In this document: piece after piece, positions 1,328 through 51,955 of the stretch
How the letters are laid out: each line of letters begins with the position of its first letter
Numbering within the stretch: the first letter of the stretch is position 1
Virus record (IMG/VR): IMGVR_UViG_3300045996_001542
Coordinates: 1-53,077 of that record
Reading direction: 5' to 3' (one strand)
Source of the DNA: a virus
Lineage: Duplodnaviria > Caudoviricetes
Length of the DNA: 53,077 bases
Made by a program: the position numbers and the translations under genes
Notes under the pieces: model-generated
Databases searched by the model: none
The model's input: the letters and a program-made list of their open reading frames with translations, nothing else
Told to the model about the DNA's origin: nothing

Positions 1328-1344
1328 CGCGTAACCGTTACGCA
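1328..1344. promoter_or_regulatory. 17-bp palindrome copy 1 (cGCGTAACCGTTACGCA, one mismatch)
   Basis: Sequence match. Lies in the divergent gap between 333..1055(-) and 1835(+). Confidence 0.8.
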
Positions 1345-1497
1345 CCCAAGCCCCTGACCTGCGACGATACCCAAAACGGTTCACCCCCTCTTCACCCCCT
1401 CTATGGCAGCCAGATACCCCACACCCCGCCCGAAACGCCCCGAAACGCCCGATACGGACCGCTAGCCACCCCCCCACGTTTTTCTAGCTCCGCCGGG

Positions 1498-1676
1498 TTT
1501 CGAGTACCCGTTACGGGGTGCTGGGTGTCCACCGGGGTTTTGAGTTCCCGAAACCGTTTTGAGGCACCCGAAATGGGGTGTTGAGGGGGCCTGGAGGGTT
1601 TTGCGGTACCCGAAATCCCGTTTTGAGTACCCGAAACGGGGTATTGCGGTACTCGTTACCCGTTTCGGGTACTCGA
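1498..1676. repeat. Array of degenerate TTTTGAGTACCCGAAA repeats ending in a 16-bp perfect inverted repeat
   Basis: Copies at about 1498, 1538, 1557, 1599, 1621, 1644 and inverted at 1663. GAGTACCCGAAACGGG (1625-1640) pairs with 1659-1674. Confidence 0.85.
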
Positions 1677-1759
1677 TACGCGGGGCCGGCCGCGGGTCCC
1701 TACACTGGGCCCGTACCTCCTTGTCTCGCTTGGTTCGCCGGATGCCGAGGAACAGCAAG

Positions 1760-1791
1760 GGCCCCCTGCCTGCTGGAACAGGCAGGGGGCC
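1760..1791. terminator. 13-bp GC-rich hairpin
   Basis: GGCCCCCTGCCTG-ctggaa-CAGGCAGGGGGCC. No U tract. Confidence 0.45.
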
Positions 1792-1834
1792 ATCTCGGTG
1801 GCCGAGTAACGCGTACTGGGTACTCTTTACGGTC

Positions 1835-2182
1835 ATGGGGCGACCACCGCTGGGACCGGCCAAGAAGTCCAGGACGATCGCGATCCACGTGACCGAGGCC
1901 GAGTACCAGCTCATCGCGAAGCACGGCTCACCCGGGCCCTGGTGTCGCCAGGCAGTGCTCGCCACCCTCACAGCTCGCGCACCGGCCCCACCCCGCCCCA
2001 AGGTCAAGCCCGCCGAGCCGAAGCCCGAGGAACCCCCACCCGTCCAGCCCAAACAGGCTGCACCACTCGAGGCGCCGCACCGGCACCGCCGGCAACGCAC
2101 CGGCGAGAAGTGGGTAGGCGGGGAAGACGTCGGCACCTGGGAATGCGCCACCTGCGGCGCCACCCTCGGCATCCTCCAGTGA
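1835..2182 (+). CDS. Putative RHH DNA-binding protein with Pro-rich linker and C-terminal Zn ribbon
   Basis: MGRPP...TIAIHVTEAEYQLI beta-alpha-alpha pattern; HRH...CATC at the C-terminus. Confidence 0.6.
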   Translation: MGRPPLGPAKKSRTIAIHVTEAEYQLIAKHGSPGPWCRQAVLATLTARAPAPPRPKVKPAEPKPEEPPPVQPKQAAPLEAPHRHRRQRTGEKWVGGEDVGTWECATCGATLGILQ

Positions 2183-2508
2183 ACGCACGAAGGCCCACAC
2201 CGGACAAGGACGAAGGGTGTGGGCCGACGCGTCACGGAGGTCACCGTGGAGCTTCCCCTACCGGAAGCAGTCCGGACACTACCCCCAACAACGACGGCCC
2301 GCACCGGGTGAAGAGTGCAGGCCGTCGCGGCGCGGAATCCGCACGCGCACTCCGCCCCAGGGGATGGGCGCCAGGGGGGAGGCCACGACCATACCCCGCA
2401 CCACTGACACACGCGCGGTATACCCCCATACGCGTATCGAGGTATACAAAACCCCAGGGGTCGCCTTACAGTTGAGCTGGAGTTGCACGTCCAGCCTGTA
2501 TGCAGTAG

Positions 2509-2796
2509 ATGACCGAGGAGGTAGTCATGGCTCAGCCGTCCCAGATGGAACGCCCCAACCGTGTCGTCTCCGGTCGCCTGTCGGCCGCGCAGTTCCTCTC
2601 CCTGAACCAGGAGCTCCAGGACCGTGGGCTGAACCGCTCCGTCCTGGTCGCCGACCTCGTGATGGCCTGGCTGCGGGCCGTCACCGGCCGCGGCCACCGC
2701 TGCCACTGCCCCGACTGCCCCGGGAACATGGCCACCCTGCGCCGGCGCACGGACGTGCAGCCCTCCCTCTGGCTGGACGACGCGTACAGCGCCTGA
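2509..2796 (+). CDS. Putative RHH DNA-binding protein with Cys/His motif
   Basis: VVSGRLSAAQFLSLNQELQDRGLNRSVLVADLV; HRCHCPDC. Start may be ATG 2527 after GAGGAGG. Confidence 0.6.
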   Translation: MTEEVVMAQPSQMERPNRVVSGRLSAAQFLSLNQELQDRGLNRSVLVADLVMAWLRAVTGRGHRCHCPDCPGNMATLRRRTDVQPSLWLDDAYSA

Positions 2797-2837
2797 AACC
2801 CGCATCCGGTGACACCGAATGGTAGGATCCGGGGTCT

Positions 2838-3185
2838 ATGAGCAGGAAAGGCCTCGGAAAAGCGGGTCGGACCATCACCCGCACCGTAAAGGTCACCGGT
2901 TACGAGCAGGACTACCTCATCCGGCGCTACGGCAGCGTGTCGGCGGGCCTGCGCGCCGGCCTGGACTGCCTACTGCCCGCCTCGGTGAACAACCCGGGGC
3001 GGGCAGTACGCAAAAAAGCCGTCGTGAACAGCCAAAACACCCTGTTTGCCACTCCGGACGGTTGCGGACCGCTGATCAGCGACCATCCTGGGTGGAAGAT
3101 CGTCGCGCGCGGCACGAAAACCCGCACCGTCATCAAAGAATGCCGAAATTGCGGAATTCAGGTCACCGAAACGGGGAATTCGTGA
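2838..3185 (+). CDS. Putative RHH-like protein with C-terminal CxxC
   Basis: TRTVKVTGYEQDYLIRRYGSVSAGLRAGLD; CRNC. Confidence 0.55.
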   Translation: MSRKGLGKAGRTITRTVKVTGYEQDYLIRRYGSVSAGLRAGLDCLLPASVNNPGRAVRKKAVVNSQNTLFATPDGCGPLISDHPGWKIVARGTKTRTVIKECRNCGIQVTETGNS

Positions 3186-13626: not shown

Positions 13627-13782
13627 ATGCCCTGCGCATGCAACAAGAAGAAGAACACCGTCGAGTACGTCGTGACCTACCCGGACGGGTCCACCGTCAC
13701 CCAGAACAGCGAGCTGGAGGCCAAGACCCTGGCGACCAAGGTCGGCGGGCGGTACTCGGCCCGGACCAAGCAGCCTGCGTAA
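13627..13782 (+). CDS. Small conserved-type protein (MPCACNKKK...)
   Basis: CxC start, YVVTYPDGS; its TAA lies inside the palindrome. Confidence 0.7.
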   Translation: MPCACNKKKNTVEYVVTYPDGSTVTQNSELEAKTLATKVGGRYSARTKQPA

Positions 13783-13792
13783 CCGTTACGCA
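13776..13792. promoter_or_regulatory. 17-bp palindrome copy 2
   Basis: TGCGTAACCGTTACGCA; contains the stop codons of both convergent genes. Confidence 0.9.
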
Positions 13793-14550
13793 GCGTCGTT
13801 CGCGGCGGCGCGGTTCAGGGCGTTGTACACCGTCTGCCTGGACACGGTCAGCTTCTCCGCGATCTTCGCCTTGGACATGCCCTCGCTGTTCAGCTGGACG
13901 ATCATCATGTCTCGCGCCTCCATGTCCAGCGTGGACAGGTTGGACACCGTGGGGATCGGGCCGCTGTCCACGTTGACGATCTCGCTGGACACGGGGGTGG
14001 GCACGCTGCTGGACACGGGGGTGTCCACGGTGGACGGCGCGGCCTTGACCACCCTGGACGGCTTGGACACCTGGCGTGTGCGGGTCTTGACGCTCGGGGT
14101 GGACGGCGTGTCCAGGCTGGGGCGGATGATGATGCGGTCCGCGATCTCGTGTGTGCCCAGCAGGGAACCGACCGGGATCAGTCCAGCCAGCACGGCGCCC
14201 ACCACACCCTCGTAGCCCTGCGGGCCGTTCAGCCAGGCGTGGGCGGTGTTCGCGCCGGACGACACCGCTGTCCAGAGGCCGACCCACATCCACGGGCGGA
14301 CGGACGACTCGCCCTCGGCGCGGGCCGCGATCGCGGCGTAGGTGTACACGATGATCGCGCCGTCGATGAACACCGGCAGCAGCGGGCCCAGGTAGATGGG
14401 CAGCGCCATCCACTCGGCCAGGGTGGACACCGCGGCGTAGCTCAGGACGAAGCTGACGCACACGATCAGCGCGATCGAGTAGATCGCGAACAGAACCGGC
14501 CCACGTGCCGCGGGGTCGACGCGTAGGACATTGCGCTGCATCTTGGACAT
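13786..14550 (-). CDS. DUF2637-like multi-pass membrane protein with C-terminal HTH
   Basis: SFVLSYAAVSTLA, LLPVFIDGAIIV, SSGANTAHA; four hydrophobic helices; GMSKAKIAEKLTVSRQTVYNAL. Confidence 0.75.
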   Translation of the reverse strand: MSKMQRNVLRVDPAARGPVLFAIYSIALIVCVSFVLSYAAVSTLAEWMALPIYLGPLLPVFIDGAIIVYTYAAIAARAEGESSVRPWMWVGLWTAVSSGANTAHAWLNGPQGYEGVVGAVLAGLIPVGSLLGTHEIADRIIIRPSLDTPSTPSVKTRTRQVSKPSRVVKAAPSTVDTPVSSSVPTPVSSEIVNVDSGPIPTVSNLSTLDMEARDMMIVQLNSEGMSKAKIAEKLTVSRQTVYNALNRAAANDAA

Positions 14551-34881: not shown

Positions 34882-34906
34882 GGGGTGCGTAACGGTTACG
34901 CACCCC
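34882..34906. promoter_or_regulatory. Palindrome copy 3, extended to 25 bp (core 34886-34902)
   Basis: GGGGTGCGTAACGGTTACGCACCCC at the convergence of the left and right arms. Confidence 0.9.
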
Positions 34907-41086: not shown

Positions 41087-41261
41087 GCGGGGCCTCCGGG
41101 TCGGGACGGCGGGACTGGACGGCGTTCGGGCGCCCGGCCCGGTAGGCGTCGCAGGGCCACGGCATGACGCAGACCCAGCACACTAGCTCGGTGTCGTTGG
41201 TGCCGTACACGCTCACCGTGATCGGCGCGCACGCGTTCGCCTCGTCCCACCGGTCCGTCAT
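41079..41261 (-). CDS. Small protein with CxxC...WPC motif
   Basis: ATGA overlap; CWVCVMPWPC. Confidence 0.55.
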   Translation of the reverse strand: MTDRWDEANACAPITVSVYGTNDTELVCWVCVMPWPCDAYRAGRPNAVQSRRPDPEAPHA

Positions 41262-41527
41262 GGGCGGTCTCCCGTGGGCTGGTCGGCGATGGGCCGTTCC
41301 CACAACGGCAAGCCGTCCTCGGGGCCGACCTCCTCGGAGAACTCGACCTTGGGCGCGCCCGGGTAGGCGTGCGTGCCGAACATGAACCACCCGGCGGGCG
41401 GTGGCCGGAAGTGGGCGGAGCAGTGGTACTTGCAGCCATCACAGGCGCAGCGGCACGTATTGGGGTCGGTCTCGTGCCCGGGGCATGTGTCCGGGTCGGG
41501 CGGCGGGGGTGCGTAACCGTTACGCAT
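41258..41527 (-). CDS. Cys-rich hypothetical protein starting inside the palindrome (MRNGYAPP...)
   Basis: TGATG overlap with the SLOG gene; CPGH...CRCACDGCKYHC. Confidence 0.6.
   Translation of the reverse strand: MRNGYAPPPPDPDTCPGHETDPNTCRCACDGCKYHCSAHFRPPPAGWFMFGTHAYPGAPKVEFSEEVGPEDGLPLWERPIADQPTGDRP
41510..41526. promoter_or_regulatory. 17-bp palindrome copy 4
   Basis: TGCGTAACCGTTACGCA overlapping a start codon. Confidence 0.9.
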
Positions 41528-41967
41528 CAGAACAACTTTCCCTGGTCGGGGTGGACGGGGTTCACGGGCTGCACGGCCGCGTCGTCCAGCCAGAGCCGGT
41601 CGCCGTCCAGCCGCCACACGATCGTGGGGATCGCTTTCTTGCGCGCCTCGGACAGGCACCCGGACGCTCCGGTGGACTGGTCGCGGATGAACACGACGCA
41701 CACGTCCGCGCCGAGGTAGGCCATGCGCCGGTTGCGGATCGCGCCGGCCAGGTGGCGCCCGTACCGGGCCCAGTCGGCGGGGTGGCGCTCCACGTCCCAC
41801 CCGCGTTTGCGCGCCAGGAGGTCGGCGTAGTGGTCCGCGCCCGTGCGGCACGCGCCGTGCACGACGACGACCTGCCGCGCGGGGGTCTCGCCCACGACCT
41901 GGTCCAGCACCGTGGCGATCGTGGTGGCGTCGACCCAGTCCCGAGACCCCGCGACCAGGAGCCTCAT
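41527..41967 (-). CDS. SLOG-superfamily protein (YspA/DUF2493-like)
   Basis: MRLLVAGSRDW; VVHGACRTGAD; HPADW..YG..AG.IRN..M; STGA. Confidence 0.85.
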   Translation of the reverse strand: MRLLVAGSRDWVDATTIATVLDQVVGETPARQVVVVHGACRTGADHYADLLARKRGWDVERHPADWARYGRHLAGAIRNRRMAYLGADVCVVFIRDQSTGASGCLSEARKKAIPTIVWRLDGDRLWLDDAAVQPVNPVHPDQGKLF

Positions 41968-42911
41968 GAGGGTGAGAACTCCGCCATGCGGCGGATCGCC
42001 CCGAAGTCGATCCCGTCGAGGCTGGGCCCGACGTCCGCCGGGGCACCGACACGGCACTGCGGGCACATCGTCACACCGTTGCCCGGGTGCGGACGGTCAC
42101 CACCTGGCTGCCCGTGCGGGCACTCGGGCATGGTCCCCAGAAGCTCCAGGTCCTCCGCGAGCCGCTGGACACGAAGTTCCCCAGCGCGCTCGTAGGCACG
42201 GCCCGCGAGGGTGCAGCCGCGGCAGTTCTCGCCACCTCCGGACGCGGGGGGGTTGGGCTTGTCCTGATGCCGGGTGCACTGGTTCGGGTAGGCCGGCGCG
42301 GCGAAGCCGCCGCCGTTCGTCGGGTCGATCGCCGTTCGCTCCGTCGCCGTCTCGCGCGTTACGGAAGGTGACGAAGCAGAAGAAGTCTCCACGCGCTGAT
42401 CAGACCTGGCGGCTCCGCCGCCGGTCCTCTTCGTACGACCAGTCTTCGTACGACCAGTATTTGTAGTTCTCTTTCTTTGTAGTGGCTGGCCAACCGGATC
42501 CGGTTCAACCGGATCCGGCTTAACCGGATCCGGATTTCCAGGACGCGGTGGGACCGTGTCCGGATTTCCAGGACGCGGTACCTCGTCCTCGGGCAGGGGC
42601 GCCTCGATGTCGATGGCAGGATCGTCGGTGACGTAGTACTCCAGGCTCTCGAACCTGCCGCCCTTGCGGACCCCGGTCCGCGTCACGTACCCGGCCTCGA
42701 TCAGCTCGTTGAGGGCAGTCGCGATGGCGTCACGCCCCTCGGTACCTTGCTCCGCGAGCTGACGGATGCTGGTCTTCCATCCCGGCGGCAGGCTCAAGAG
42801 GTAGGCCATGAGGCCACGCGCCCGGAACGACAGCGTGCTCTTGCGCAGCGCGCCGTTGGCGATGAGGGCGAAGTTGTCCGCCACACGGGCGGACCTGGTG
42901 ATCGTGGTCAT
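41964..42911 (-). CDS. Winged-HTH replication initiator-like protein
   Basis: NFALIAN..LR...LSFRARGLMAYLLSLP.GW...GRDAIATALNELIEAGY; central repeat-rich linker; C-terminal Cys/His motifs. Confidence 0.75.
   Translation of the reverse strand: MTTITRSARVADNFALIANGALRKSTLSFRARGLMAYLLSLPPGWKTSIRQLAEQGTEGRDAIATALNELIEAGYVTRTGVRKGGRFESLEYYVTDDPAIDIEAPLPEDEVPRPGNPDTVPPRPGNPDPVKPDPVEPDPVGQPLQRKRTTNTGRTKTGRTKRTGGGAARSDQRVETSSASSPSVTRETATERTAIDPTNGGGFAAPAYPNQCTRHQDKPNPPASGGGENCRGCTLAGRAYERAGELRVQRLAEDLELLGTMPECPHGQPGGDRPHPGNGVTMCPQCRVGAPADVGPSLDGIDFGAIRRMAEFSPS
42428..42579. repeat. Iteron-like repeats and AT-rich patch inside the initiator gene (putative origin)
   Basis: TCTTCGTACGACCAG x2; AT-rich 42458-42482; AACCGGATCCGG x3 at 15-bp period; TCCGGATTTCCAGGACGCGGT x2 at 30-bp period. 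Confidence 0.75.
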
Positions 42912-43038
42912 GAAGCCTCTCCGGGTATGGCTCGGAGAGGAGGGTGCGACCAACCACGACCTGCGGCCCCAGGTTGTCCGAATTGCTGCTAACCTGGCCC
43001 CAGACGAGAGGGGGTCGTGATTGGTGCACGCTCCTCTT

Positions 43039-43079
43039 GTAGAGGTCCCGGGTTCTCCGCCCGGGGCCTCTACTCTTTT
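43039..43079 (+). terminator. Hairpin with U-rich tail upstream of the lysis island
   Basis: GTAGAGGTCCCGGG-7 nt-CCCGGGGCCTCTAC-TCTTTT. Confidence 0.6.
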
Positions 43080-43168
43080 GTCTGCAATGCGTCTATCTAC
43101 TGTCTGCTCGCAGGTTACCGGTTCCTCACGTCCGCCGTGACCCGGAGGGTGAAACTCGTTTCCCACCA

Positions 43169-43189
43169 GGTGCGTAACCGTTACGCACC
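43169..43189. promoter_or_regulatory. Palindrome copy 5 (core 43171-43187)
   Basis: GGTGCGTAACCGTTACGCACC in the divergent initiator/lysin gap. Confidence 0.9.
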
Positions 43190-43260
43190 GGGGATCCTGG
43201 AGAAGTAACCCGGGGCCGCACCGGACAGACCACGCTCGCGTGGTCCAAAGGGGCGCCCCC

Positions 43261-44085
43261 GTGGCGAGCAGCAACGGCAAACTCACCAAAGATGAGCGCA
43301 CACCGCTCAAGTCCGCCCCCGGGCAGGAACTCGAAGAGGACGGCGCCGCGTCCTGGGACCGCCTGTGGGACGCGATGGTCTCCACGTACGCGTGGCCCAT
43401 GGTCCTGACCGACTCCTACCGGCCGCTGGAGGTCCAGCAGGAGATCTTCCTCGACCGGTACCGCCCGGCCGCGACCGGGTCCGGGCCGTTCAACGACGTC
43501 CGCAGCTACAACGGCCGCCGGTACGTCCGCGTGACCGGCGCCGCCGCCGCCGTCCCGGGCACCTCGAAGCACGGCTGGGGTCGCGCCGTCGACATCGCCG
43601 GCGTCGGCGACTTCCACAGCGCCCGGTACCGGGCGCTGGTCGAGCTGGCACCCCACTTCGGGTGGTCGAACGCCGCCGGGCGCACCATCGGGGAGTACTG
43701 GCACTGGGAGTTCACCGCGGCGAACGACAAGTCCGCCGACGAGCCGACGCCTCGCCCGCTCGAGGTCACGCGCGACGACATCAAGGCCATGCAGCGCGCC
43801 GTCCACGTGGAGGACGACGGCCGGTGGGGTCCGAACACCGACAAGGCCACGATCAGCGTCCGTGAGGCGTCCCGCTGGGGCAAGGGCCAGTTCCCGTGGG
43901 GCTACGGCACCGTGCAGCGCGCCATGGGCCGCCCCGTGTCCGGCAAGTGGGGCCCGGCGGACATCGAGGCGCACGACGCCACCGTGGCGGCCATCCAGCG
44001 CGTCCTGGGTGTTGCCGACGACGGCGTCTGGGGCGAGCGGACCGAGTCCAAGTTCCAGCGCTTCCGCGCCGCCGCCCGGAAGTAG
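43261..44085 (+). CDS. Endolysin: M15/VanY-like peptidase plus repeated peptidoglycan-binding motifs
   Basis: DSYR...Q; AAVPGTSKHGWGRAVD; EYWHWEF; Q..(V/L).V.DDG.WG..T repeats. Start could be 43240. Confidence 0.88.
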   Translation: MASSNGKLTKDERTPLKSAPGQELEEDGAASWDRLWDAMVSTYAWPMVLTDSYRPLEVQQEIFLDRYRPAATGSGPFNDVRSYNGRRYVRVTGAAAAVPGTSKHGWGRAVDIAGVGDFHSARYRALVELAPHFGWSNAAGRTIGEYWHWEFTAANDKSADEPTPRPLEVTRDDIKAMQRAVHVEDDGRWGPNTDKATISVREASRWGKGQFPWGYGTVQRAMGRPVSGKWGPADIEAHDATVAAIQRVLGVADDGVWGERTESKFQRFRAAARK

Positions 44086-44092
44086 AGGGACC

Positions 44093-44323
44093 ATGACCGA
44101 GGACACCGGTTCCGAGATCCTGCGCTACTTCGAGTACGCCCACCTGCCGCCCGGGATCATGATGGACACGTCCCGGGCGTTCCACGCCCAGGCGCAGCGC
44201 ATCGTCACGACCCTGCCCAGCTCCGTGGAGCGGTCCGCGGCACTGCGCCACCTCCTGGAGAGCAAGGATGCGGCCGTGCGCGCCGCGATGGACCTGACCG
44301 CAGAGGACCACTACACGCCGTGA
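44093..44323 (+). CDS. Small helical-hairpin protein
   Basis: ILRYFEYAHLP...LPSSVERSAALRHLLESKDAAVRA; AGAGGGA RBS. Confidence 0.8.
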   Translation: MTEDTGSEILRYFEYAHLPPGIMMDTSRAFHAQAQRIVTTLPSSVERSAALRHLLESKDAAVRAAMDLTAEDHYTP

Positions 44324-44336
44324 GCAAGGAGTTCAG

Positions 44337-44531
44337 GTGACGACCGTGCGGGTGAGCAGCGACGTGCTGCGGACCGTGGCCGCTTTCCTCGTGCTGGCCG
44401 TCGGCCTCTACCGGATCGTCATCGATGGCCTCACCCCGGACAGCCTGGCCCTCCTGACCCCGGCCCTGGCTCTGCTGGCCGTGGACACCCACAAGCCCAG
44501 CAAGCCGTCGAGCAAGACCGAGGAGACCTGA
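44337..44531 (+). CDS. Putative holin (2 TM)
   Basis: AAGGAG RBS; two hydrophobic segments with a charged tail; near the endolysin. Confidence 0.55.
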   Translation: MTTVRVSSDVLRTVAAFLVLAVGLYRIVIDGLTPDSLALLTPALALLAVDTHKPSKPSSKTEET

Positions 44532-44792
44532 ATGGCTCTCAGCACCCGCACCCGCCGATGGATCGTGGCCCTGGCCATCCCACTTGGGGTGGTCCTGCTC
44601 TGGATCGGGTACGTCCAGGACCAGAAGCGCGACAACTACTACGACTGCCGCCAGTCCGCCATGGACACCCTGCACACCAGCTTGTCGCTGCACCTGGACC
44701 AGGGCCCGGAGGACCCCAAGATCTGGGTACCGGAGTGGGTCGAGGACTTCCACGACTGGCACACCATGCTGGCCATGTGCGAGAAGCCGTAG
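44532..44792 (+). CDS. Membrane-anchored protein (1 TM)
   Basis: WIVALAIPLGVVLLWIGY; GAGGAG RBS. Confidence 0.6.
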   Translation: MALSTRTRRWIVALAIPLGVVLLWIGYVQDQKRDNYYDCRQSAMDTLHTSLSLHLDQGPEDPKIWVPEWVEDFHDWHTMLAMCEKP

Positions 44793-44836
44793 CCGCCCAT
44801 AACGGGCGTCCGGCCGCTGGGTGAAGTACCGTCCCG

Positions 44837-45322
44837 GTGGTGGAGTACACCCCTGACATGCCGGAGCACGTCCCGCCCTCGGACGACGTACGAGCCGCCG
44901 ACTTCCGCGCGAAGACCGCCCGCCGCATCCGCCGCGCGAAGTGGAAGCACCTCGCCTTCTGGTACATCGTGGCCGCCGGCGGCATCTGGTCCGGGTACCA
45001 GGTCACGGCGCTTGAGCTGTACTGGATGTACCCGTGGCTCACCGGCGTCTGGATCGCCGTGATCCTGATCTCGCAGACCGTCCACGCCGACCAGGTCTAC
45101 CGCATGGGCTACACGGCTGGCGTGACGATGGGGATGGTCGCGTCCCGCGAGATCTCCGCGCACGTCAGGTGGCATGCCGAGCGCGGCGAGGAGGCCTGCG
45201 ACGGGATCGGGGTCCGGGCCGTCGTCCCCCACATGTGGGAGCACCCGATCGTGCTCGAAGAGATCGGCCGCCAGCTGCCGGGCGTGTTCGACGACGACGA
45301 CGACGAAGAGCCCCGGTCATGA
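44837..45322 (+). CDS. Membrane protein (2 TM)
   Basis: Hydrophobic segments. Start uncertain (44837, 44840 or 44858). Confidence 0.6.
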   Translation: MVEYTPDMPEHVPPSDDVRAADFRAKTARRIRRAKWKHLAFWYIVAAGGIWSGYQVTALELYWMYPWLTGVWIAVILISQTVHADQVYRMGYTAGVTMGMVASREISAHVRWHAERGEEACDGIGVRAVVPHMWEHPIVLEEIGRQLPGVFDDDDDEEPRS

Positions 45323-45558
45323 ACGACCCCCTCGGGGCGCACCGGCGCAGGCCCACCCTCGCCGTCCGCCTGGCCCGCATCGCGCTGGGCGCCGCGTTCG
45401 CGACCGTGCAGATGTGGGCGGGGCTGGTCCTGGGCGACTCGCCGTTGGGCTGGGCGCTGATCATCATGGCGGGCTGGAACGCCGGCCTGGTCCTCGTCGG
45501 CCTCATCAGCCTGCGCGAGGCCTCATCGCCCAAGTGGGGAGAGGGGACGCCCCGATGA
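45319..45558 (+). CDS. Membrane protein (2 TM)
   Basis: ATGA overlaps; hydrophobic segments. Confidence 0.6.
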   Translation: MNDPLGAHRRRPTLAVRLARIALGAAFATVQMWAGLVLGDSPLGWALIIMAGWNAGLVLVGLISLREASSPKWGEGTPR

Positions 45559-45794
45559 CGGACGTGAACGACGACCCGGTCGCACCGGAACACGTCCGGC
45601 TCGTCGACATCCACGGGGTGGAGGTGGAGGCTACCCGCGTCGTCTACCTCGGGCCTGACGTCGAGGATGACCTGCACGTCTTCGAGGCCTGGTTCCCCCT
45701 GGACACCGAGCTGCCGCCCGATGGCACGCCACCTCCGGTCATGATCGGGAGGATGCCCGGCCGGACGTCGCTCGTCCTGCGCTTCCACTCGTGA
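45555..45794 (+). CDS. Hypothetical protein
   Basis: ATGA overlap (MTDVNDD...); GAGGGG RBS. Confidence 0.6.
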   Translation: MTDVNDDPVAPEHVRLVDIHGVEVEATRVVYLGPDVEDDLHVFEAWFPLDTELPPDGTPPPVMIGRMPGRTSLVLRFHS

Positions 45795-45810
45795 ACCTTC
45801 CGTCCGATCT

Positions 45811-46050
45811 GTGACAATTGGGCCCATGGCAACAATTTGCAGCCACGTCGACACGATGACGAAGTTCGGCGGGAGCATCATCTGTACCGCCTGCCGCCTG
45901 GTGGTCGGGTACGTCGGGCAGCCGCCCGAACCCCCCCGGACCCAGGACATACCCACCGACCCGGCCGAGCTGGAGGCGTGGAAGGAGCAGTTCACCACCG
46001 ACCTGCTGCGCCACCCCGGCGGGGTAGACGCCCCATGGAAGAGCGTATGA
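45811..46050 (+). CDS. Small Zn-ribbon protein
   Basis: CSH...CTAC. Start may be ATG 45826. Confidence 0.55.
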   Translation: MTIGPMATICSHVDTMTKFGGSIICTACRLVVGYVGQPPEPPRTQDIPTDPAELEAWKEQFTTDLLRHPGGVDAPWKSV

Positions 46051-46295
46051 AGTTCGACTCGCCCAGCGCCTTCTCCGTCGCCCTGTCCGGGCACCTGAGC
46101 GACTACATGAACGAGCACGGTCTCGACGTGGACCAGGTCGCCGCGCAGCTGCACGACCCGCCCCGCCCCGCGAGCTGGGTGCGCGACTGCATGACCGGGG
46201 TCCTGTCGCCGGACACCGACCTGCTGAACGTCGTGGCGCGGCTGAGCGGTACCGACGTGCGCAGCCTCGTGGTGACCCTGATGTCCCGAATGTAG
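46047..46295 (+). CDS. XRE-like HTH protein (putative)
   Basis: LSDYMNEHGLDVDQVAAQL...WVRDCMTG..SP..DLLNVVARLSG. Confidence 0.55.
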   Translation: MKFDSPSAFSVALSGHLSDYMNEHGLDVDQVAAQLHDPPRPASWVRDCMTGVLSPDTDLLNVVARLSGTDVRSLVVTLMSRM

Positions 46296-46460
46296 GCCTC
46301 CGCCGCCCGGTCCGTGCTCACTACGTGCTCACTGCGCGCTTAACTGGGCGCCGCTGCGCAGGGCATCGGTGCAGGTCAGGACCTTAATCCGCTCGCTGCA
46401 CGCACCCGCTCATGTAAAGCGGGTGTCTAGTGTGTGGGGCCGTCCAGGGCCTCATGTTCG

Positions 46461-46483
46461 GGGTGCGTAACCGTTACGCACCC
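46461..46483. promoter_or_regulatory. Palindrome copy 6 (core 46464-46480)
   Basis: GGGTGCGTAACCGTTACGCACCC in the convergent gap closing the lysis island. Confidence 0.9.
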
Positions 46484-46489
46484 GGCAAG

Positions 46490-46729
46490 TCATGCTCCCG
46501 GCCTCCGCTCGCTGCGCGCGAACTCGAAGTTCTCGCAGTCACAGCCCTTCACCTCGCACGGACGCCCCAGGAAGAACGCCGCCTTGTGCTCGTCGTGGTC
46601 ATGACCGCACACGCATACGTCCTGGCTATGGGTGTGAGTCGCCGGGCCCAGGTTGATGGTCTGGTCGCGGTCGAGCCGGGCGGTGGCCAGCCCTTCGCGG
46701 GTGAGCATCGCACGCACCAGCGGATTCAA
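46490..46729 (-). CDS. Small Cys/His protein
   Basis: CVCGH...H...C...CDC..F. Confidence 0.6.
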   Translation of the reverse strand: MNPLVRAMLTREGLATARLDRDQTINLGPATHTHSQDVCVCGHDHDEHKAAFFLGRPCEVKGCDCENFEFARSERRPGA

Positions 46730-47184
46730 CTCGCCCCCTCGGGGATCTCGGCGGTCAGGCTCAGGCCAAGGTCGGCGCGCAGCCGGTACTCGTCGAGCAG
46801 TGCGTCGATGGCGTCATAGCTCGCCCAGGTACTGCGCTCCGGACGCTCGCCGCGGCGCTCGCGCAGCCAGGCGGCCACGACGTCGTCGCGGTGCGGCAGG
46901 AGGTCGTCGCGGTGCGGCAGGAGGTCGTGGCCGACGGCGTCTGCCGGCACTTCGTCGAACCACTCGCGGTGCAGGGCGATCATCCGGTCCGGCACCCCAT
47001 CCACGTGCGGCAGCTGCACCATGACCTGGCCGTTGACGATGACCACCGTGGCGGGGAGGTACAGCCTGTCACCGTGCTGGATCCGCCCGCGGACCTCCTC
47101 GTCGGTGACCCACACCCCGTGCGCCCCCTCGGCGTGGGTGTCGTCCTGCTCACGTTCCGTCGCTTTCGTCCCTTGCGTGTCCAC
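46726..47184 (-). CDS. Hypothetical protein
   Basis: GTG at 47184 after AGAACGGAGCACCACAG; AIDALLDEYRLRAD. Confidence 0.65.
   Translation of the reverse strand: MDTQGTKATEREQDDTHAEGAHGVWVTDEEVRGRIQHGDRLYLPATVVIVNGQVMVQLPHVDGVPDRMIALHREWFDEVPADAVGHDLLPHRDDLLPHRDDVVAAWLRERRGERPERSTWASYDAIDALLDEYRLRADLGLSLTAEIPEGAS
46882..46928. repeat. 21-bp tandem duplication in frame
   Basis: GTCGTCGCGGTGCGGCAGGAG x2, encoding LLPHRDD twice. Confidence 0.85.
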
Positions 47185-47292
47185 CTGTGGTGCTCCGTTC
47201 TCGGTAGGATGTGTGCCGAACTCCCGTTCGTTCTGTTCCGTTCTGGCGGGAGTGCCCGGACCGGCGACCTGGGGTGGTCGCCGCCGGGCGTA

Positions 47293-47323
47293 CAAGGCCC
47301 CTCGCCACCGGTGAGGGGCCTTG
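47293..47323 (-). terminator. Hairpin after 47332..47682
   Basis: CAAGGCCCCTC...GAGGGGCCTTG. Confidence 0.6.
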
Positions 47324-47331
47324 CGCATGGG

Positions 47332-47682
47332 TTAGAAGATCCGGCCGGCGCTTTCCCGGTGCATCCCGTGTTGGCGCGTCTCGCCGCAGATGGCGCACCG
47401 GGAGTCGTGGCGCTCCTCCTGTCGACCCTCGGTCTCGAAGATGTGGGGCCGCTCGGACTCGCGGGGCGGGTTGCTGGTGGTGCGGGGCGTGCTCATGACT
47501 TCTCCCTCTGTGTCCTGGATGTAGACGCGGCCGTGCCCTTGGCACGTCGGGCACTTCGAGCCGGACGAGTTCTGCCCCGAGCCCGCGCACCGGGTGCAGG
47601 GTGCCGGGCTGAACCCGTCTGGCTGGCCGGTGTTGAAAAACTTCGATTGCGTGATGGTCTTGGGCTTGCGTTGCGTGACCAC
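47332..47682 (-). CDS. Protein with DnaJ-type CxxCxGxG zinc motifs
   Basis: CTRCAGSG...CPTCQGHG; second H...CAIC...H; GTG after the AGAACGGAG motif. Confidence 0.6.
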   Translation of the reverse strand: MVTQRKPKTITQSKFFNTGQPDGFSPAPCTRCAGSGQNSSGSKCPTCQGHGRVYIQDTEGEVMSTPRTTSNPPRESERPHIFETEGRQEERHDSRCAICGETRQHGMHRESAGRIF

Positions 47683-47701
47683 TGTGGTGCTCCGTTCTGA
47701 G

Positions 47702-48298
47702 TTAGTCATGGCCATGGATCACACCCTCTGAGGCGGCGCCCCCCGTGACGTGCATGTGCCGGGCGTTGCAGCACAGCGGATCGCAGGACGGTCGCATCAG
47801 GACCGCCCGGCGCCGATGGTCACGGTCGCCCGAGACGATCGGCAGCCCGGCCTCCTGCGCGATCACCCGCCGCGCCGACCGCTTGCTCTGCACACTGCGG
47901 CCACCGACAGAGACAGTGGGCAGCCCGTTGGTCAGCGACCCGGTCCAGGGGTGGCACGCGTCGGGGCCGGCGGAGGTGTCGACCATGCGCTGCACCCGCT
48001 CGAACACGCTCAGCTCGTGCTGCGATTTCGCCGGGCCAGGCTCCCCGTGCTGACGCACCCGGTCGTAGTGCAGCTGGCACAGGCCCTTGGCGGACGCCGA
48101 CTCCCCGCAACCCTCGACCGAGCAGGCCTTGCCCAGGTTGCGCATCCGGGTCGGGGCCGTCGACCCGTTGTGACGCCGCGCGCGCTTGTAGTGCTTCATG
48201 CACAGCCCGCGGGCCACGACCGGGTTACCGCATTCTGGTTCGCTGCACAGCGCTGGTGCCGCGCTGTAACTGGTGTCCTTACTCGTGTCGGTGGTCAT
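47702..48298 (-). CDS. HNH-like endonuclease with two N-terminal Zn repeats, possibly degenerate
   Basis: CS...C....ARGLC..HY x2; ACHPWTG; CDPLCCNARHM; GAAAGAGGGA RBS. Confidence 0.7.
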   Translation of the reverse strand: MTTDTSKDTSYSAAPALCSEPECGNPVVARGLCMKHYKRARRHNGSTAPTRMRNLGKACSVEGCGESASAKGLCQLHYDRVRQHGEPGPAKSQHELSVFERVQRMVDTSAGPDACHPWTGSLTNGLPTVSVGGRSVQSKRSARRVIAQEAGLPIVSGDRDHRRRAVLMRPSCDPLCCNARHMHVTGGAASEGVIHGHD

Positions 48299-48334
48299 CG
48301 TGATCTTCCCTCTTTCGTGACAGCGGGCCGGCGG

Positions 48335-48351
48335 TGCGTAACGGTTACGCA
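48335..48351. promoter_or_regulatory. 17-bp palindrome copy 7
   Basis: TGCGTAACGGTTACGCA, intergenic, upstream of the HNH-like gene. Confidence 0.9.
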
Positions 48352-48380
48352 CCCCGACCCGCTGCGGCGGTTCCCCTGTT

Positions 48381-48623
48381 TCAGTTGCCCAGCGGCCGAT
48401 GCGCGTCCAGGTCGTCGCGCGCGTCACTGACCCGCACCAGGACAATCTCGGTCGGGCAGGTGACGCACGTGATGACGTCCACGTACGCCGGGCCATGCAT
48501 GTACTTCAACGTGCTCTGATGTAACTCGATCGCTTCGTGCTCACAGGCCAGGACCGTGGCCCGGTCCCGTTCGGCCAGGTCATCTCGTTCAGCCAGTTCC
48601 GGCTGCTCGGGATCTGTGGTCAC
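48381..48623 (-). CDS. Hypothetical protein
   Basis: GTGA overlap; CEH...CVTC. Confidence 0.55.
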   Translation of the reverse strand: MTTDPEQPELAERDDLAERDRATVLACEHEAIELHQSTLKYMHGPAYVDVITCVTCPTEIVLVRVSDARDDLDAHRPLGN

Positions 48624-49999
48624 GCGTCCATTGCCTCCCTCATCATGTCCTTCCATGCCTTGAGGTCGTTGCGTTCCTTCGTCACGGCCTCGAGGTCCGC
48701 GCGCAGGTCGTCGCACTCCTTGCGCAGACGCTCCAGGTCCCCGACCAGTTCGGGGTTGACCAGGGCCCGGACCTGGTTCAGCAGGTCCGTCGGCTGGGCG
48801 ATGTGCCCGGTCCCGTTCACGCTCACCGGCTCCAGCGTGGTCGGCGCGGCCTGCACCACCAGCGGCTCAGGCTTCGCGGGCTCCGGGGTGGCGGCGGCGT
48901 CGGCGTGAACCTGACCGGCGACCGGCGCGGCGGGACTCTGGCTCCGTTCGGCGAGCTTCACGTCGCCGGCGATCTTGTGGGCACGGTGGTGGCCACCGAT
49001 CGACGTCGCCGGGAACACCCTCGCGCAGTACTCGCACCGCCGCGTTCCGGGTCGACGCCGTATGTCGGATGTCGCCCGTCGGCGCACCGCCCGGTTCCCG
49101 TCCATCTGCTGCACGACGAGGGGCAGCCGGGGGTCGTCCGCGTGCAGCTTGCTGTGCACATGCCTGCCCCGAGCGGCTGGCGTGGGCAGGACCCGATCGC
49201 ACAGCGGGCACGGATACTCGCCCGAGTCATGCTTGGTGCTGTGCAGGTTCAGAGCGCCCTGCGTCTTGAACGACGCACCACAGCCTGGTTCTAGGCACGG
49301 GTACGGCAGCTCTTCGGTCTCGGTGGTCTGCGGCCCTGCTTCTGACATCGGGTGCTTCTCCTTAGGTTTGAAATGGTCCAGGGCCAAGGCCACAAGCATC
49401 TCGATCGCCTCGACCCGGGCCGGATCGGTGGCCGGACCGGACGCGGCGACGCGAACCTCCTTGGTCTGGCGTTTGGCGTCGACCAGGATCCAGTCGTCCT
49501 CGCCGCGCTCATCGAGATACCACGCCATGACGCCGGACCCTGCGGCGACGATGCCGTCCCACCAGTCGCGGGTCATCTTGTGCATTCGCAGACGCGCTTG
49601 GTAGGACTGCTTCGCGGCGATCTGCCATGGTGGCTCGGAGCCTGCCAGCGGCAGAGCATCTTCCGTAGCAGCCACGCCGAATGCGTTGCGTGAATGCTCT
49701 AGCTTCTCGCGTTCGCGTTCGCGTTTGCGAAGCCACTGGTTTAGTGGGCGGCGTGCATTCTGCCCACCCCTGTTGCGCTTGAACTTGCGCTGCACCGCCG
49801 CCGTTGCCGTGCCGTCGGGGGAGCGCAGGATGACGTGGTGGTTCGCCGACACGCGCCCGGTCCAGCCGTGCAGTTGGTACTCCATGACCAGGGCGATCGC
49901 GTCGTCCTCGAATCCTTTGAGGTCGGCCTCAGCGTCCAGCAGTTCGGGCAGATCTTCGAGCGTGGCCTCCACCATTGCCTGTGTGAGCCCAGATCCCAT
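48620..49999 (-). CDS. Multi-domain protein: HicA-like N-domain, three C2H2 zinc fingers, C-terminal coiled coil
   Basis: GWTGRVSANHHVILRSPDG; YPCLEPGCGASFKTQGALNLHSTKH; YPCPLCDRVLPTPAARGRHVHSKLH; CEYCARVF....IGGHHRAH; LERLRKECDDLRADLE. Confidence 0.75.
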   Translation of the reverse strand: MGSGLTQAMVEATLEDLPELLDAEADLKGFEDDAIALVMEYQLHGWTGRVSANHHVILRSPDGTATAAVQRKFKRNRGGQNARRPLNQWLRKREREREKLEHSRNAFGVAATEDALPLAGSEPPWQIAAKQSYQARLRMHKMTRDWWDGIVAAGSGVMAWYLDERGEDDWILVDAKRQTKEVRVAASGPATDPARVEAIEMLVALALDHFKPKEKHPMSEAGPQTTETEELPYPCLEPGCGASFKTQGALNLHSTKHDSGEYPCPLCDRVLPTPAARGRHVHSKLHADDPRLPLVVQQMDGNRAVRRRATSDIRRRPGTRRCEYCARVFPATSIGGHHRAHKIAGDVKLAERSQSPAAPVAGQVHADAAATPEPAKPEPLVVQAAPTTLEPVSVNGTGHIAQPTDLLNQVRALVNPELVGDLERLRKECDDLRADLEAVTKERNDLKAWKDMMREAMDA

Positions 50000-50026
50000 G
50001 GCTACCTTCCGTTCCTGTTCGGGAAA

Positions 50027-50242
50027 CTAGCGGTAGTACGACGAGAACGGCAGATCTTCGCCGTACTTTTCGACGTAAGAGTCCACAGCGTTACGCAAAC
50101 TCGTGTCGTCTGCATCCGGACCAGAGCGCCGGTACGTGATCGTGGCCTCCACGACCTTGAACATGTCTGCCGCTGCCGTATACGTCTCGTCGTAGATTTC
50201 CGCCAGTTCAGCGAACTGGTATTCGGGAATGCTGTCGCTCAT
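50027..50242 (-). CDS. Small acidic hypothetical protein
   Basis: ATGA overlap (MSDSIPEYQF...); lower-GC codon usage. Confidence 0.6.
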   Translation of the reverse strand: MSDSIPEYQFAELAEIYDETYTAAADMFKVVEATITYRRSGPDADDTSLRNAVDSYVEKYGEDLPFSSYYR

Positions 50243-50811
50243 CGGGTCTCCCGCACGGGCACGTCGGTGGCGACCTGCTCGTCGGTGGCCACCGTGACCG
50301 GCGGGAGCGAGGTGGTGGTCACCACGGTGGAGTACTGGCTGGCCGGGACGAAGTGGATCCGGTCGGCCAGCGCCTGGTCCGACTCCTCCGTCGACCAGCT
50401 CGCGACCGCCTTGCCCTCCGGCGCGTACACGTGCTTCTTGGTGGAGTGCCCCAGGCGCAGCGTGCACCGGTAGGTCTGCCCGCCGAGGAAGGTGCGCGAG
50501 ACCAGGCACAGCCCGGAGTTGAGCACGTCGCGCAGCGCCTTGACCTCGCCGTCAGTCGCCATCTCGTCCTCGTGGGGGTCGGTGTCACCGGTGTGGACCA
50601 CCGTACGCCCGCCCTCCGACACGAACACGTCCCACGCCCCGGACAGGGTCACGCTGTGGCCCGCCTCTGCGGCCCCCGCGTAGTGGTAGGCGAACGCGCC
50701 GACCGTGGCCGCGGACGAGAACCCGTCGGGGTCCATGAACGCAACCTCGCCCGCGTCGATCCGACCCTGCGCGTACGCCTCGGCGGCGATGAACTCTCTG
50801 GTGATTTCCAT
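50239..50811 (-). CDS. Hypothetical protein
   Basis: AGAACGGAGCACAG-ATG. Confidence 0.7.
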   Translation of the reverse strand: MEITREFIAAEAYAQGRIDAGEVAFMDPDGFSSAATVGAFAYHYAGAAEAGHSVTLSGAWDVFVSEGGRTVVHTGDTDPHEDEMATDGEVKALRDVLNSGLCLVSRTFLGGQTYRCTLRLGHSTKKHVYAPEGKAVASWSTEESDQALADRIHFVPASQYSTVVTTTSLPPVTVATDEQVATDVPVRETR

Positions 50812-50927
50812 CTGTGCTCCGTTCTAGGTGGTGCCAATCGGTAACACCGAATGGCGGCGATGCAAGGGCCACGCCCGGTGGGGTCCTGTGGCGCAGCCCT
50901 ACCTACAGTTTACCGCATTCCGTCAAG

Positions 50928-51278
50928 TCACGCGGGCTCGGCCAGGCCCGGCCCGGTCAGGACCTGCCCGTCGAGGTCCGCCAGGGCCTCGAACGTCCCG
51001 CACCTGTTGCAGACCCGGGTCTTGTTGTCGTACCGGGACATCGCGTAGCTCCCCAGCGGGTCGCCGCACCCCGGGCACATGTCCCTCGGGTTGAGCAGGA
51101 AGGCCTTGGGCGTGAACGTGACCGTGCGCTCGGCCACCGCGAGGAACGCCTCATCGAACTCGTCTCGATCCAGGTTGGTCACCATCTCTTCCGCGGCCGA
51201 ATCCGAGCGGATCGGCTCGTCGACCTCGACGACCTTGCGGTACTCGACCGTCTCGGTCCACTCCAGGATGTACTTCAT
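50928..51278 (-). CDS. Hypothetical protein with C-terminal Zn finger
   Basis: CPGCG...AMSRYDNKTRVCNRCGTFEAL; AGGAGG RBS. Confidence 0.7.
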   Translation of the reverse strand: MKYILEWTETVEYRKVVEVDEPIRSDSAAEEMVTNLDRDEFDEAFLAVAERTVTFTPKAFLLNPRDMCPGCGDPLGSYAMSRYDNKTRVCNRCGTFEALADLDGQVLTGPGLAEPA

Positions 51279-51874
51279 GATTGGTCCTCCTCCTCCTTGT
51301 AGGCAGCCACGACGCGCAGCACGTCGGGCGTGCGCATGTGGTCGTTGTCCAGCGTGTACAGCCCGCTCCAGATCTCCCAGACGATGCCGACCTCAGCGGT
51401 CAGGTGCTCGTCCTCGGGGTCGTCGAGGTCGGTCGTGTCGATGACCTGGTCACCGACCTTTGGTGTGGCGTCCGTGGTCGCCGGCCACGCGGTCAACTCG
51501 CGCCCCTGCGGGAAGCCGGGCGTCCTCGGCGCGCGCAGCACGTTGCCGTGCTCGTCAAAGCACGCGTCCACCCATTCGCCCCGGTGAAGCCACGCGTAGT
51601 CACCCGACCAGTACGGCACGTACCGGATGGCCCGCCTGCAGTGCTTGCACGCGGCGTCCGGCACGGGCTCGGGCATCGTCTTGGCCCGCTCCAGCAGCTC
51701 GGTCAGGACCCGGATCATCGTCGCCCGGTCCGCGCACTCCGCGATGACACCACCGGACCCGTCATCCAGCCACAGCGCGGGCCCGTCGTTGCGGCTGTCG
51801 CGGCCGTCCCAGGCGCCCGCCTCCATGGTCATGTCGGCGCCCTCCAGCGAGGCGAAGTAGACGGTGTTTCCCAT
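51275..51874 (-). CDS. Hypothetical protein
   Basis: AGAACGGAG...ATG (MGNTVYF); CKHC...WLH motif. Confidence 0.7.
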   Translation of the reverse strand: MGNTVYFASLEGADMTMEAGAWDGRDSRNDGPALWLDDGSGGVIAECADRATMIRVLTELLERAKTMPEPVPDAACKHCRRAIRYVPYWSGDYAWLHRGEWVDACFDEHGNVLRAPRTPGFPQGRELTAWPATTDATPKVGDQVIDTTDLDDPEDEHLTAEVGIVWEIWSGLYTLDNDHMRTPDVLRVVAAYKEEEDQS

Positions 51875-51895
51875 GCTCGTTTCTCCGTTCTGGGG

Positions 51896-51912
51896 TGCGT
51901 AACGGTTACGCA
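51896..51912. promoter_or_regulatory. 17-bp palindrome copy 8
   Basis: TGCGTAACGGTTACGCA flanked by GGG/CCC. Confidence 0.9.
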
Positions 51913-51938
51913 CCCACCTTTCGTGTGTTGCGGTCAGG

Positions 51939-51955
51939 TGCGTAACCGTTACGCA
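51939..51955. promoter_or_regulatory. 17-bp palindrome copy 9
   Basis: TGCGTAACCGTTACGCA; contains the TAA of 51949..52599. Confidence 0.9.

Follow-up and report, generated by a model that had tools for sequence, protein, structure and literature searches.

A dispersed 17-bp palindrome at the gene-block boundaries of a soil phage and its possible role as the site of a phage DNA-binding protein

The viral contig IMGVR_UViG_3300045996_001542 of IMG/VR (Duplodnaviria; Caudoviricetes) represents a phage that is known from soil metagenomes alone. The window analysed here is the whole contig, a linear stretch of 53,077 bp with ~70% G+C and a CheckV completeness of 85%, the ends of which may differ from the true genome ends. 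A scan of the record revealed a 17-bp palindrome, TGCGTAACSGTTACGCA, in eight perfect copies (core starts at 13776, 34886, 41510, 43171, 46464, 48335, 51896 and 51939) and in a ninth copy with one mismatch (1328); the window core reads GCGTAACSGTTACGC. These are exactly the nine sites listed by the first-pass annotation of this DNA, and no further site was found in the record at up to two mismatches. Chance, which had been excluded as their origin, indeed does not account for them: 0.01 matches were expected per shuffled record (mean of 100 dinucleotide-preserving shuffles) and none of the 100 shuffles reached nine. The motif had been called genome-wide; the dispersion was confirmed, but as the record is 85% complete the term is better replaced by record-wide. 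The motif string had no match in the text of the papers searched.

The gene map, an uncurated set of 81 genes from a codon-usage model trained on the record, shows one leftward gene, g1 (start 1055), at the left end, followed by ~750 bp of non-coding DNA and the rightward block g2-g40, which encodes small DNA-binding proteins, a ParB-like protein, terminase, portal, capsid and tail and is interrupted by the leftward genes g21 and g25. Next come the leftward block g59-g41 (a replication-initiator-like helix-turn-helix (HTH) protein, a Rad52-like recombinase, RusA and a PIN protein), the rightward lysis block g60-g68 and the leftward block g81-g69 of genes without assigned function. Non-coding DNA makes up 8.8% of the record; no tRNA gene was found in the record and no Rfam family in the window. 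The terminase is 41-47% identical to terminases of Arthrobacter, Curtobacterium and Microbacterium phages, and no close cultured phage was found at the DNA level. In line with the earlier statement that an integrase is missing, the record (85% complete) gave no match to the tyrosine integrase, serine recombinase, resolvase or Y1 transposase families.

Copy 1 (1328..1344; CGCGTAACCGTTACGCA) has its mismatch at the outermost position and retains a perfect palindrome at 1329-1343; it lies in the repeat-rich non-coding control region of ~750 bp, 272 nt from the start of g1. The same region (1056-1800) has a lower G+C content (57-65%) and iteron-like repeats, with five copies of CCCGAAAC, three of GTACCCGAAA, TTTTGAG spacers and a 14-pair hairpin at 1760-1791, and may serve as an origin or as an array to which a second regulator binds. 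Copy 2, a perfect palindrome of 19 bp (13775..13793), sits at the convergent junction of g20(+) and g21(-) and contains both TAA stops. Copy 3, the longest with 25 bp (34882..34906; perfect, RNA fold -20.2 kcal/mol), separates the late rightward from the leftward block at a second convergent junction; the stop of g40 precedes it by 6 nt, and it includes the TAA stop of g41. Copy 4 (41510..41526) consists of the 17-bp core alone, abuts the stop of g58(-) and lies 126 nt upstream of the g57 start; despite its perfect core the hairpin is weak (-7.3 kcal/mol, z 0.09).

Copy 5, a 21-bp palindrome (43169..43189), is located in the 349-bp divergent gap between g59(-), the replication-initiator-like HTH protein, and g60(+), the endolysin, 73 nt upstream of the g60 start; a frame plot showed 42911-43261 to be non-coding. 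This gap also holds, within 42960-43085, a 15-pair hairpin with a plus-strand T-tract (43039-43073), which is kept in a related contig (L084) with compensatory changes, follows a conserved block that has an inverted repeat of its own and may be a small RNA or a leader terminator, as far as the hairpin is concerned. Copy 6 (23 bp, 46461..46483) lies at the third convergent junction, with the g68 stop 168 nt before and the g69 stop 9 nt after it. The non-coding stretch between g68 and this copy (46312-46438) is ~80% identical to contig L133, with a hairpin of 8 pairs and two occurrences of the direct repeat GTGCTCAC; the palindrome of L133 stands on the opposite side of the block. Copy 7 (48324..48362; core 48335-48351, perfect palindrome 48333-48353) forms the tip of a bulged stem of 19 pairs (-33.7 kcal/mol, z -5.7), which occupies the space from the g73 stop, at a distance of 29 nt, to the ribosome-binding site (RBS) and ATG of g72; the start of g72 was revised to 48298, and the copy precedes it by 36 nt. 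Copy 8 (23 bp, 51893..51915) lies 21 nt upstream of the g78 start, just ahead of the RBS, and copy 9 (21 bp, 51937..51957) contains the TAA stop of g79; the two form a pair spaced 43 bp start to start, or about four helical turns. Another repeat, AGAACGGA, occurs five times in non-coding DNA (37679, 47194, 47237, 50818 and 51884). It extends the Shine-Dalgarno sequence a few bases upstream of the leftward g45, g70, g76 and g78 starts, the copy at 47237 having no assigned gene, and its context also follows the palindrome in contigs L103, L138 and L139.

Each of the nine copies is either intergenic or reaches into a gene no further than its final two codons and stop. The first-pass annotation had placed the site at convergent gene ends, which applies to only three copies (13776, 34886 and 46464); two lie in divergent control regions (1328 and 43171) and four between co-directional leftward genes (41510, 48335, 51896 and 51939). 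Its count of five copy-bearing strand switches among eight was reproduced on the independent map of 81 genes. The three switches without a copy are the divergent gap g21|g22 and both sides of the HNH gene g25, and all four major block boundaries carry one. Seven of the nine copies are found within 34.9-52.0 kb. Since TAA is read in both directions within the palindrome, it can end genes on either strand: g20, g21, g41 and g79 end on it, which amounts to four of the eight TAA stops among the 81 genes. No sigma-70-type promoter was found near any copy in a scan that is crude for Actinobacteria.

In copy order the perfect palindromes measure 15, 19, 25, 17, 21, 23, 21, 23 and 21 bp, which agrees with the extension by G/C arms to 19-25 bp described before, and the wider consensus is GG-TGCGTAAC-S-GTTACGCA-CC. 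Beyond the core the arms extend by 1.9 bp on average in the window and by 4.4 bp in relatives, where the first flanking pair was fixed by the search pattern, compared to 0.43 bp at random centres. Isolated half-sites were considered as a further class of sites and rejected because they were no more frequent than expected by chance (3 seen, 3.4 expected); the unit is therefore the full dyad.

Further copies were collected by scanning metagenome contigs for the 19-mer, which returned 65 contigs, 25 with low and 40 with high G+C content. The low-GC contigs (L082-L132) were rejected as a second operator context: they carry the identical 19-mer beside TATAAAG and a third half-site and encode hAT-family transposases (DUF4371 and hAT dimerisation domain), so that they are eukaryotic hAT-type transposons and the match is a coincidence. 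From the window and related contigs, 38 non-redundant copies (9 and 29, respectively) were aligned on the core in stretches of 45 nt. None of the 14 inner positions varies in this set, and the outermost T/A pair is present in 35 of the 38 copies; the sole varying core position is the centre, which is C or G, and an extra one-mismatch copy (L138:16) has T there. Several high-GC contigs hold two to four copies despite their short length (L099, L103, L121, L124 and L138). Relatives of window proteins are encoded by nine of the 40 high-GC contigs, and a tenth, L133, was recognised by blastn only; for the remaining 30 no protein or nucleotide similarity to the window was detected. Among contigs with fully conserved G/C arms and several copies, the motif is more widely shared than the neighbouring genes.

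Conservation in relatives, the lack of which had been named as counting against the element, was observed: in five of the contigs related to the window the palindrome is kept at the matching junction. It precedes the endolysin in L084 (flanking protein 68% identical; centre base changed from C to G), stands between the g73 and g72 homologues in L121 (51-59%) and between the g79 and g78 homologues in L124 and L135 (35-49%), so that the motif is invariant at syntenic sites over a range of 35-68% identity of the flanking proteins. Conservation with diverged flanks was also seen in L012, L013 and L101. In L101, L110, L112 and the IMG/VR relatives the palindrome lies in a variable segment after g20. 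Several copies in related contigs are associated with gene starts, and an arrangement of core-CC-N-GAACGGAGA-ATG recurs in several contigs. Within IMG/VR the motif was found in only nine contigs, eight of them unrelated and with a single copy, the ninth a relative with 93% identity (L008/L012). A related-locus search with g45 gave no additional relatives of the right arm, the alignment query returning only the phages Tank and OneinaGillian, and contigs of four runs compared with 34000-53077 (80% likeness) yielded short identical pieces with many spurious joints of 20-24 nt sides, none of which gave information on the palindromes, on transcript ends or on recombination. The sequencing runs listed for this DNA were all of soil and rhizosphere DNA, with no RNA run among them.

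Next to these metagenomic sequences, bacterial genomes were searched. Among 185,579 species genomes (one each) the 17-mer occurred in 56 stretches from many phyla, always as a single copy per stretch, which is about the chance expectation. Two actinobacterial genomes with one copy had no further site at up to two mismatches, and in a sample of Actinomycetes a site at up to one mismatch was present in four of 401 genomes, one each, compared to one genome with the reversed control pattern. As the earlier view required, the palindrome is thus not an abundant host repeat in the genomes searched. One metagenome-assembled genome (MAG) of a planctomycete (Planctomycetaceae) carries the 17-mer on five contigs and a second MAG on two; these copies (L024, L045, L067, L078 and others) may be an unrelated repeat of that lineage.

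Distantly related cultured phages carry palindromes of their own in a like arrangement, as revealed by a de novo palindrome scan. OneinaGillian (Microbacterium, Cluster EG) has a terminase 41.5% identical to that of the window, and 13 window proteins, ten of them structural or packaging proteins, were matched by tblastn at 24-46% identity; OneinaGillian and BruhMoment (Arthrobacter) share structural and packaging genes with the window at ~25-47% identity and have the same overall layout, and Tank (Arthrobacter) and Sunfish (Curtobacterium; L153) were compared with the window by their terminases only. OneinaGillian contains 11 copies of ATCAACC-NN-GGTTGAT, with one pair at 37 bp. BruhMoment contains 18 copies of GGGTCGG-N4-CCGACCC, a stem shared with Tank (24 copies in the right 37.6 kb, one pair at 34 bp) but with other loops, and Sunfish contains 12 copies of GTCTAGC-S-GCTAGAC in its right 35 kb. 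The four relatives therefore carry three different palindromes, most copies of which lie directly before an RBS in short leftward-arm gaps. The combination of constant half-sites and a free centre in these phages fits the site of a dimer.

The symmetry was then analysed at the level of RNA folding. In the 38 aligned copies the seven core pairs are paired in 99.6% of cells and the GG/CC pairs in 89.5%. The twelve outer pairs are paired in 53.5% of cells and all twelve have changed on both sides, whereas slid controls reached 32-43% over the whole structure. At the g73|g72 site the lower stem shows compensatory changes in L121, and the most extreme arms comprise 10-17 extra perfect pairs. About half of the copies are long palindromes with varying arms and a constant tip. 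In the window, folds clearly better than those of shuffled sequences were obtained for 34886, 43171, 46464 and 48335 alone and for 51896/51939 as a pair; those of 41510 (z 0.09), 13776 (z -1.39) and 1328 (z -1.40) were no better than shuffles. None of the nine window copies is followed by a T-tract, the U-tract after the stem in RNA, and none was called terminator-like; canonical T-tract hairpins occur elsewhere in the window, for example the one at 43039-43073. Over 25 sites the sense strand folded better at eight and the antisense strand at 16, and the sense RNA has G as its centre base at 15 and C at ten of the sites (own count). As the sense strand has no folding advantage, the symmetry is of the Watson-Crick type on both strands.

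The comparators of the first-pass annotation, dispersed but asymmetric stoperators and clustered lambda-type operators, missed the closest systems, namely the inverted repeats of phiC31 and the dyad repeats of Cluster O and Cluster EG phages. A scan of phiC31 (NC_001978) revealed 15 dispersed copies of TACTCAC|GTGAGTA over 41 kb, nearly all intergenic and mostly 10-66 nt after stops, with one close pair and one copy that caps a stem with an 11-bp extension, behind which a T-tract follows. We take these to be the conserved inverted repeats (CIRs) bound by the gene c repressor, and this binding was reportedly described by Ingham et al. in 1994 and Wilson et al. in 1995. Like the CIRs, the window palindrome is dispersed, invariant and in all nine cases intergenic or at a stop codon. 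Unlike GCGTAACSGTTACGC, the phiC31 core (TACTCACGTGAGTA) has an even length; phiC31 is temperate and has an integrase, whereas none was found in the record, and since its genes nearly all point in one direction its sites do not mark strand switches.

On plasmid RK2, a replicon of ~60 kb, the KorB operators (OB) offer a second likeness: they are about a dozen dispersed palindromes, have C/G at the centre and lie partly at promoters and partly far from them; KorB is a ParB-family protein that silences at a distance. The window phage encodes a ParB-N protein, g12, which matches ParB_N only (residues 25-155 of 186) and in which no DNA-binding HTH was detected; ParB-N proteins are common beside terminase genes, for example gp12 of BruhMoment. 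The nine central bases of the Sunfish palindrome, TAGCSGCTA, are presumably those of the KorB operator as well, which may be chance. With terminators and repetitive extragenic palindromic (REP) sequences the palindrome shares the position of stem-loops just after genes and, in a few related copies, A/T tracts on both sides. It differs from them by the invariant 17-nt tip and the missing T-tracts of all nine window copies, and the REP-associated Y1 (HUH) transposase family PF01797 had no match in the record (85% complete).

Among published repeats, Cluster EG phages of Microbacterium, distant relatives of the window phage, carry 8-10 copies of an 18-bp inverted repeat, GATCAACCNNGGTTGATC, in short intergenic gaps of the leftward right arm; the repeat lies 14-22 bp upstream of start codons, is kept despite diverging surrounding DNA and has no assigned function, and no repressor or integrase was identified (PMC7302621). 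Such an association with starts was found in the window only for 51896 (21 nt); 48335 is 36 nt away and the others are 73-272 nt away or at stops. The Cluster EG centre consists of two free bases, the sequence is different and extended stems are not reported, and the window copies lie mostly after stops or at strand switches. Cluster O mycobacteriophages, which are unrelated (prolate heads), have more than 30 copies of a 17-bp dyad, TGTTCGGNNNCCGAACA, about a third of them inside genes; the repeat is absent from host genomes, recombination between copies makes insertions and deletions, and the authors infer a dimeric regulator from the symmetry of the site (PMC4351075). The window palindrome resembles it in its invariant half-sites, free centre, G/C-rich flanks, lack of orientation relative to transcription and enrichment in the leftward right arm; a role at strand switches is not reported for it. 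Features of the Cluster O and EG type are indeed present in the window: at least eight copies of a 17-18 bp dyad, location in right-arm gaps, conservation in relatives and absence as a repeat from the bacterial genomes searched. Since such dyads have been published for both clusters, the claim of novelty made earlier was too strong. The stoperators of Cluster A, many dispersed repressor sites that stop elongating polymerase, are asymmetric, bound by a monomer and oriented with transcription, unlike the perfect, unoriented dyad of the window (PMC9283540).

A roadblock or insulator, an RNA-processing hairpin and a recombination signal had been proposed side by side for the palindrome. All three are kept here, and we favour the protein-bound roadblock: tentatively, and with a confidence somewhat short of even, we regard the palindrome as the operator or roadblock site of a putative phage protein that binds DNA as a dimer, some copies additionally acting as hairpins. 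The two-fold symmetric, family-specific site would be read as duplex DNA by a phage-encoded dimer or dimer of dimers. Its sites lie at the edges of transcription blocks, after stops, ahead of an RBS and in the two divergent control regions, where the bound protein would repress nearby promoters or halt RNA polymerase coming from either direction. Whole early-gene blocks could be switched on or off in this way, as is presumably the case for the phiC31 repressor at its dispersed inverted repeats. Outward growth of the palindrome into long stems would let about half of the copies double as hairpins, and the few copies with A/T tracts would resemble true bidirectional terminators.

A dimer is favoured because both half-sites are invariant while the centre is free and unoriented, and recognition as duplex DNA because the conservation of the core is independent of hairpin strength, as seen at 41510, 13776 and 1328. 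An operator is further favoured because two copies lie in divergent control regions, where there is nothing to terminate, because of the phased pair at 43 bp, the different word in each lineage and the precedent of phiC31, and because no window copy has a T-tract although T-tract hairpins occur elsewhere in the same DNA. Candidate binders are the ribbon-helix-helix (RHH)-like proteins g3, g4 and g15, which were judged by eye and, for g15, also by the annotation of relatives, the HTH proteins g8, g9, g21, g59 and g68 and the zinc-finger-like proteins g72 and g74; none of them is singled out. Nothing further came from a PDB sequence search with g12, g68 and g9; no family was assigned to g79 and g1 by the ESM Atlas, nor by Pfam to ten open reading frames flanking motif arrays in L099, L103, L138 and L093. 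Neither g1 nor g79 had a match in cultured phages, and g1 had no similarity to the equivalent last genes of OneinaGillian and BruhMoment.

Several observations weigh against an operator. The covariation score of the alignment is 0.238, compared to 0.150 +/- 0.015 for shuffled alignments (reached by none of 500) and 0.10-0.16 for slid ones; a plain operator needs no covarying arms, which therefore point to hairpin formation or to palindrome growth by template switching. For six of the nine copies a stop codon precedes at a distance of at most 30 nt, as is typical of RNA 3' hairpins, and terminator-like A/T tracts accompany three related copies (L012:6187, L101:4788 and L110:1813). In Tank (L152, record 36381-67530) 17 of the 24 loops read TTGC or TTAC on the top strand, that is GCAA or GUAA (GNRA) on the leftward transcript; these loops are oriented and RNA-like, so that the trait may act at the RNA level in the wider group. 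On the side of the protein, searches of Pfam with 60 window proteins and of PHROGs with ten gave generic HTH or ParB-N domains only, and no homologue of the phiC31 gene c repressor (683 aa) was found in the window by tblastn or blastp (best E 1.6). Judging by the missing integrase the record looks lytic, and a lysogeny repressor of the phiC31 type is not expected. Finally, the authors of the Cluster O study doubt a transcriptional role of their repeat as most sites are far from promoters (PMC4351075).

The strongest alternative, though we consider it somewhat unlikely, is that the palindrome acts mainly in RNA, as an intercistronic hairpin whose conserved tip is read by a nuclease or an RNA-binding protein. 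It could mark a site of processing, protect a 3' or 5' end as a stem, terminate or attenuate transcription weakly, or control translation as an operator beside the RBS. Such an element would resemble the RNase III sites of T7 or REP hairpins. The covarying outer stems and the long stem that the orthologous g73|g72 site keeps by compensatory changes speak for it, as do the positions close behind stops and, at 21 and 36 nt, ahead of two starts, the recurring core-CC-N-GAACGGAGA-ATG context, the A/T-tract forms of the three relatives and the GNRA-type loops of Tank. Structure alone, however, fails to explain 14 invariant positions over such deep divergence. G-U pairs are not used, neither strand nor centre base is oriented with transcription, three window copies are not significant hairpins and two are located in divergent control regions. 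Mycobacterial RNA polymerase is reported to need a U-tract for intrinsic termination, and none of the window copies has one; the Cluster EG motif, with a stem of 6 bp at most, is weak as RNA.

Very unlikely, in our estimate, is a signal for recombination or mobility, either as a short, orientation-free patch of identity, common to many phages, for the Rad52-like recombinase g45, which would swap, delete or invert gene cassettes, or as a miniature palindromic element entering terminator loops. The first-pass annotation had raised the question of whether breaks of synteny with relatives fall on the sites, and at 13776 they indeed do so in six related contigs (L012/L008, L013, L101, L110 and L112), with an exact coincidence in L012/L008, L013 and L101. 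A 1.9-kb replacement is present there in L012, where the palindrome caps a long stem that has A and T tracts on its flanks; L013 carries one more small HTH gene as well as a classical terminator apart from the palindrome, which lies between two leftward genes; and other genes are present in L101, L110 and L112. Gene cassettes are bounded by copies in the window and in L121, and the lysis block lies between two leftward blocks with copies at both ends (43171 and 46464); the lysis genes of OneinaGillian and Sunfish stand immediately behind those for the tail. The 30 high-GC motif contigs without similarity to the window and the four TAA stops supplied by the palindrome, as expected if genes were joined there, are further points in favour, and growth by template switching would be consistent with perfect arms as long as 25 bp (L101). 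Insertions and deletions that arise by recombination between repeats are also described for Cluster O (PMC4351075). However, 17-21 bp is little for homologous exchange, such a patch does not require every position to be under purifying selection, and the record has no match to the Y1 transposase, tyrosine integrase or resolvase families. Breaks at gene boundaries are expected in mosaic phages anyway, and any conserved repeat may give rise to recombination as a side effect. A transcription regulator or nucleoid protein of the host that the phage borrows would require no conserved phage protein and would suit a motif common to contigs with otherwise unrelated early genes, but it is highly improbable given only 56 scattered single-copy stretches in 185,579 species genomes, two actinobacterial genomes without a further site and one site each in four of 401 Actinomycetes, a search outside which the host genome may lie.

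Two other loci and the lysis genes of the record deserve mention. The HNH endonuclease gene g25 (17469-18083, minus strand) lies within the structural block, and alignments with L012, L008, L013 and L101 end at 17454 and restart at 18169; since g25 is absent from these relatives it is a clean insertion, and it is probably a homing endonuclease. The genes g46 and g47 (37728-38398) encode a small RHH-like protein followed by a PIN-domain protein, a pair that looks like a phage-borne toxin-antitoxin module of the VapBC type. The lysis block (g60-g68, 43261-46295) starts with a VanY-type endolysin followed by small genes including g62 and g63, which are likely membrane proteins, as judged by eye; a search with the endolysin gave no hint at the host.

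Beyond the operator itself, a wider scheme covering the whole group can be formulated, which we regard as doubtful. Actinobacteriophages with a rightward structural and a leftward early arm would each use a private address palindrome that co-evolves with its putative regulator, and the palindrome would be a portable boundary cassette with a fourfold function. That it combines all four properties, as an operator or roadblock, as a supplier of stops in both directions, as the seed of a bidirectional hairpin and as a patch of identity for the Rad52-like recombinase, seems rather unlikely to us as well. If true, one 17-bp word would link the regulation of genes to modular evolution, and cassettes would be swapped among phages that share the same address. 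Dispersed invariant palindromes are known in several actinobacteriophage clusters, with a role assigned only for phiC31. New here are the invariance across 35-68% protein identity, the marking of all major strand switches, the built-in stops, which make up half of the TAA stops, the covarying outer arms and the use of a different word by each sister lineage. Should a single protein family recognise them, the words would constitute a simple, transferable switch for phage gene blocks and possibly also a marker for phages that are able to exchange modules.

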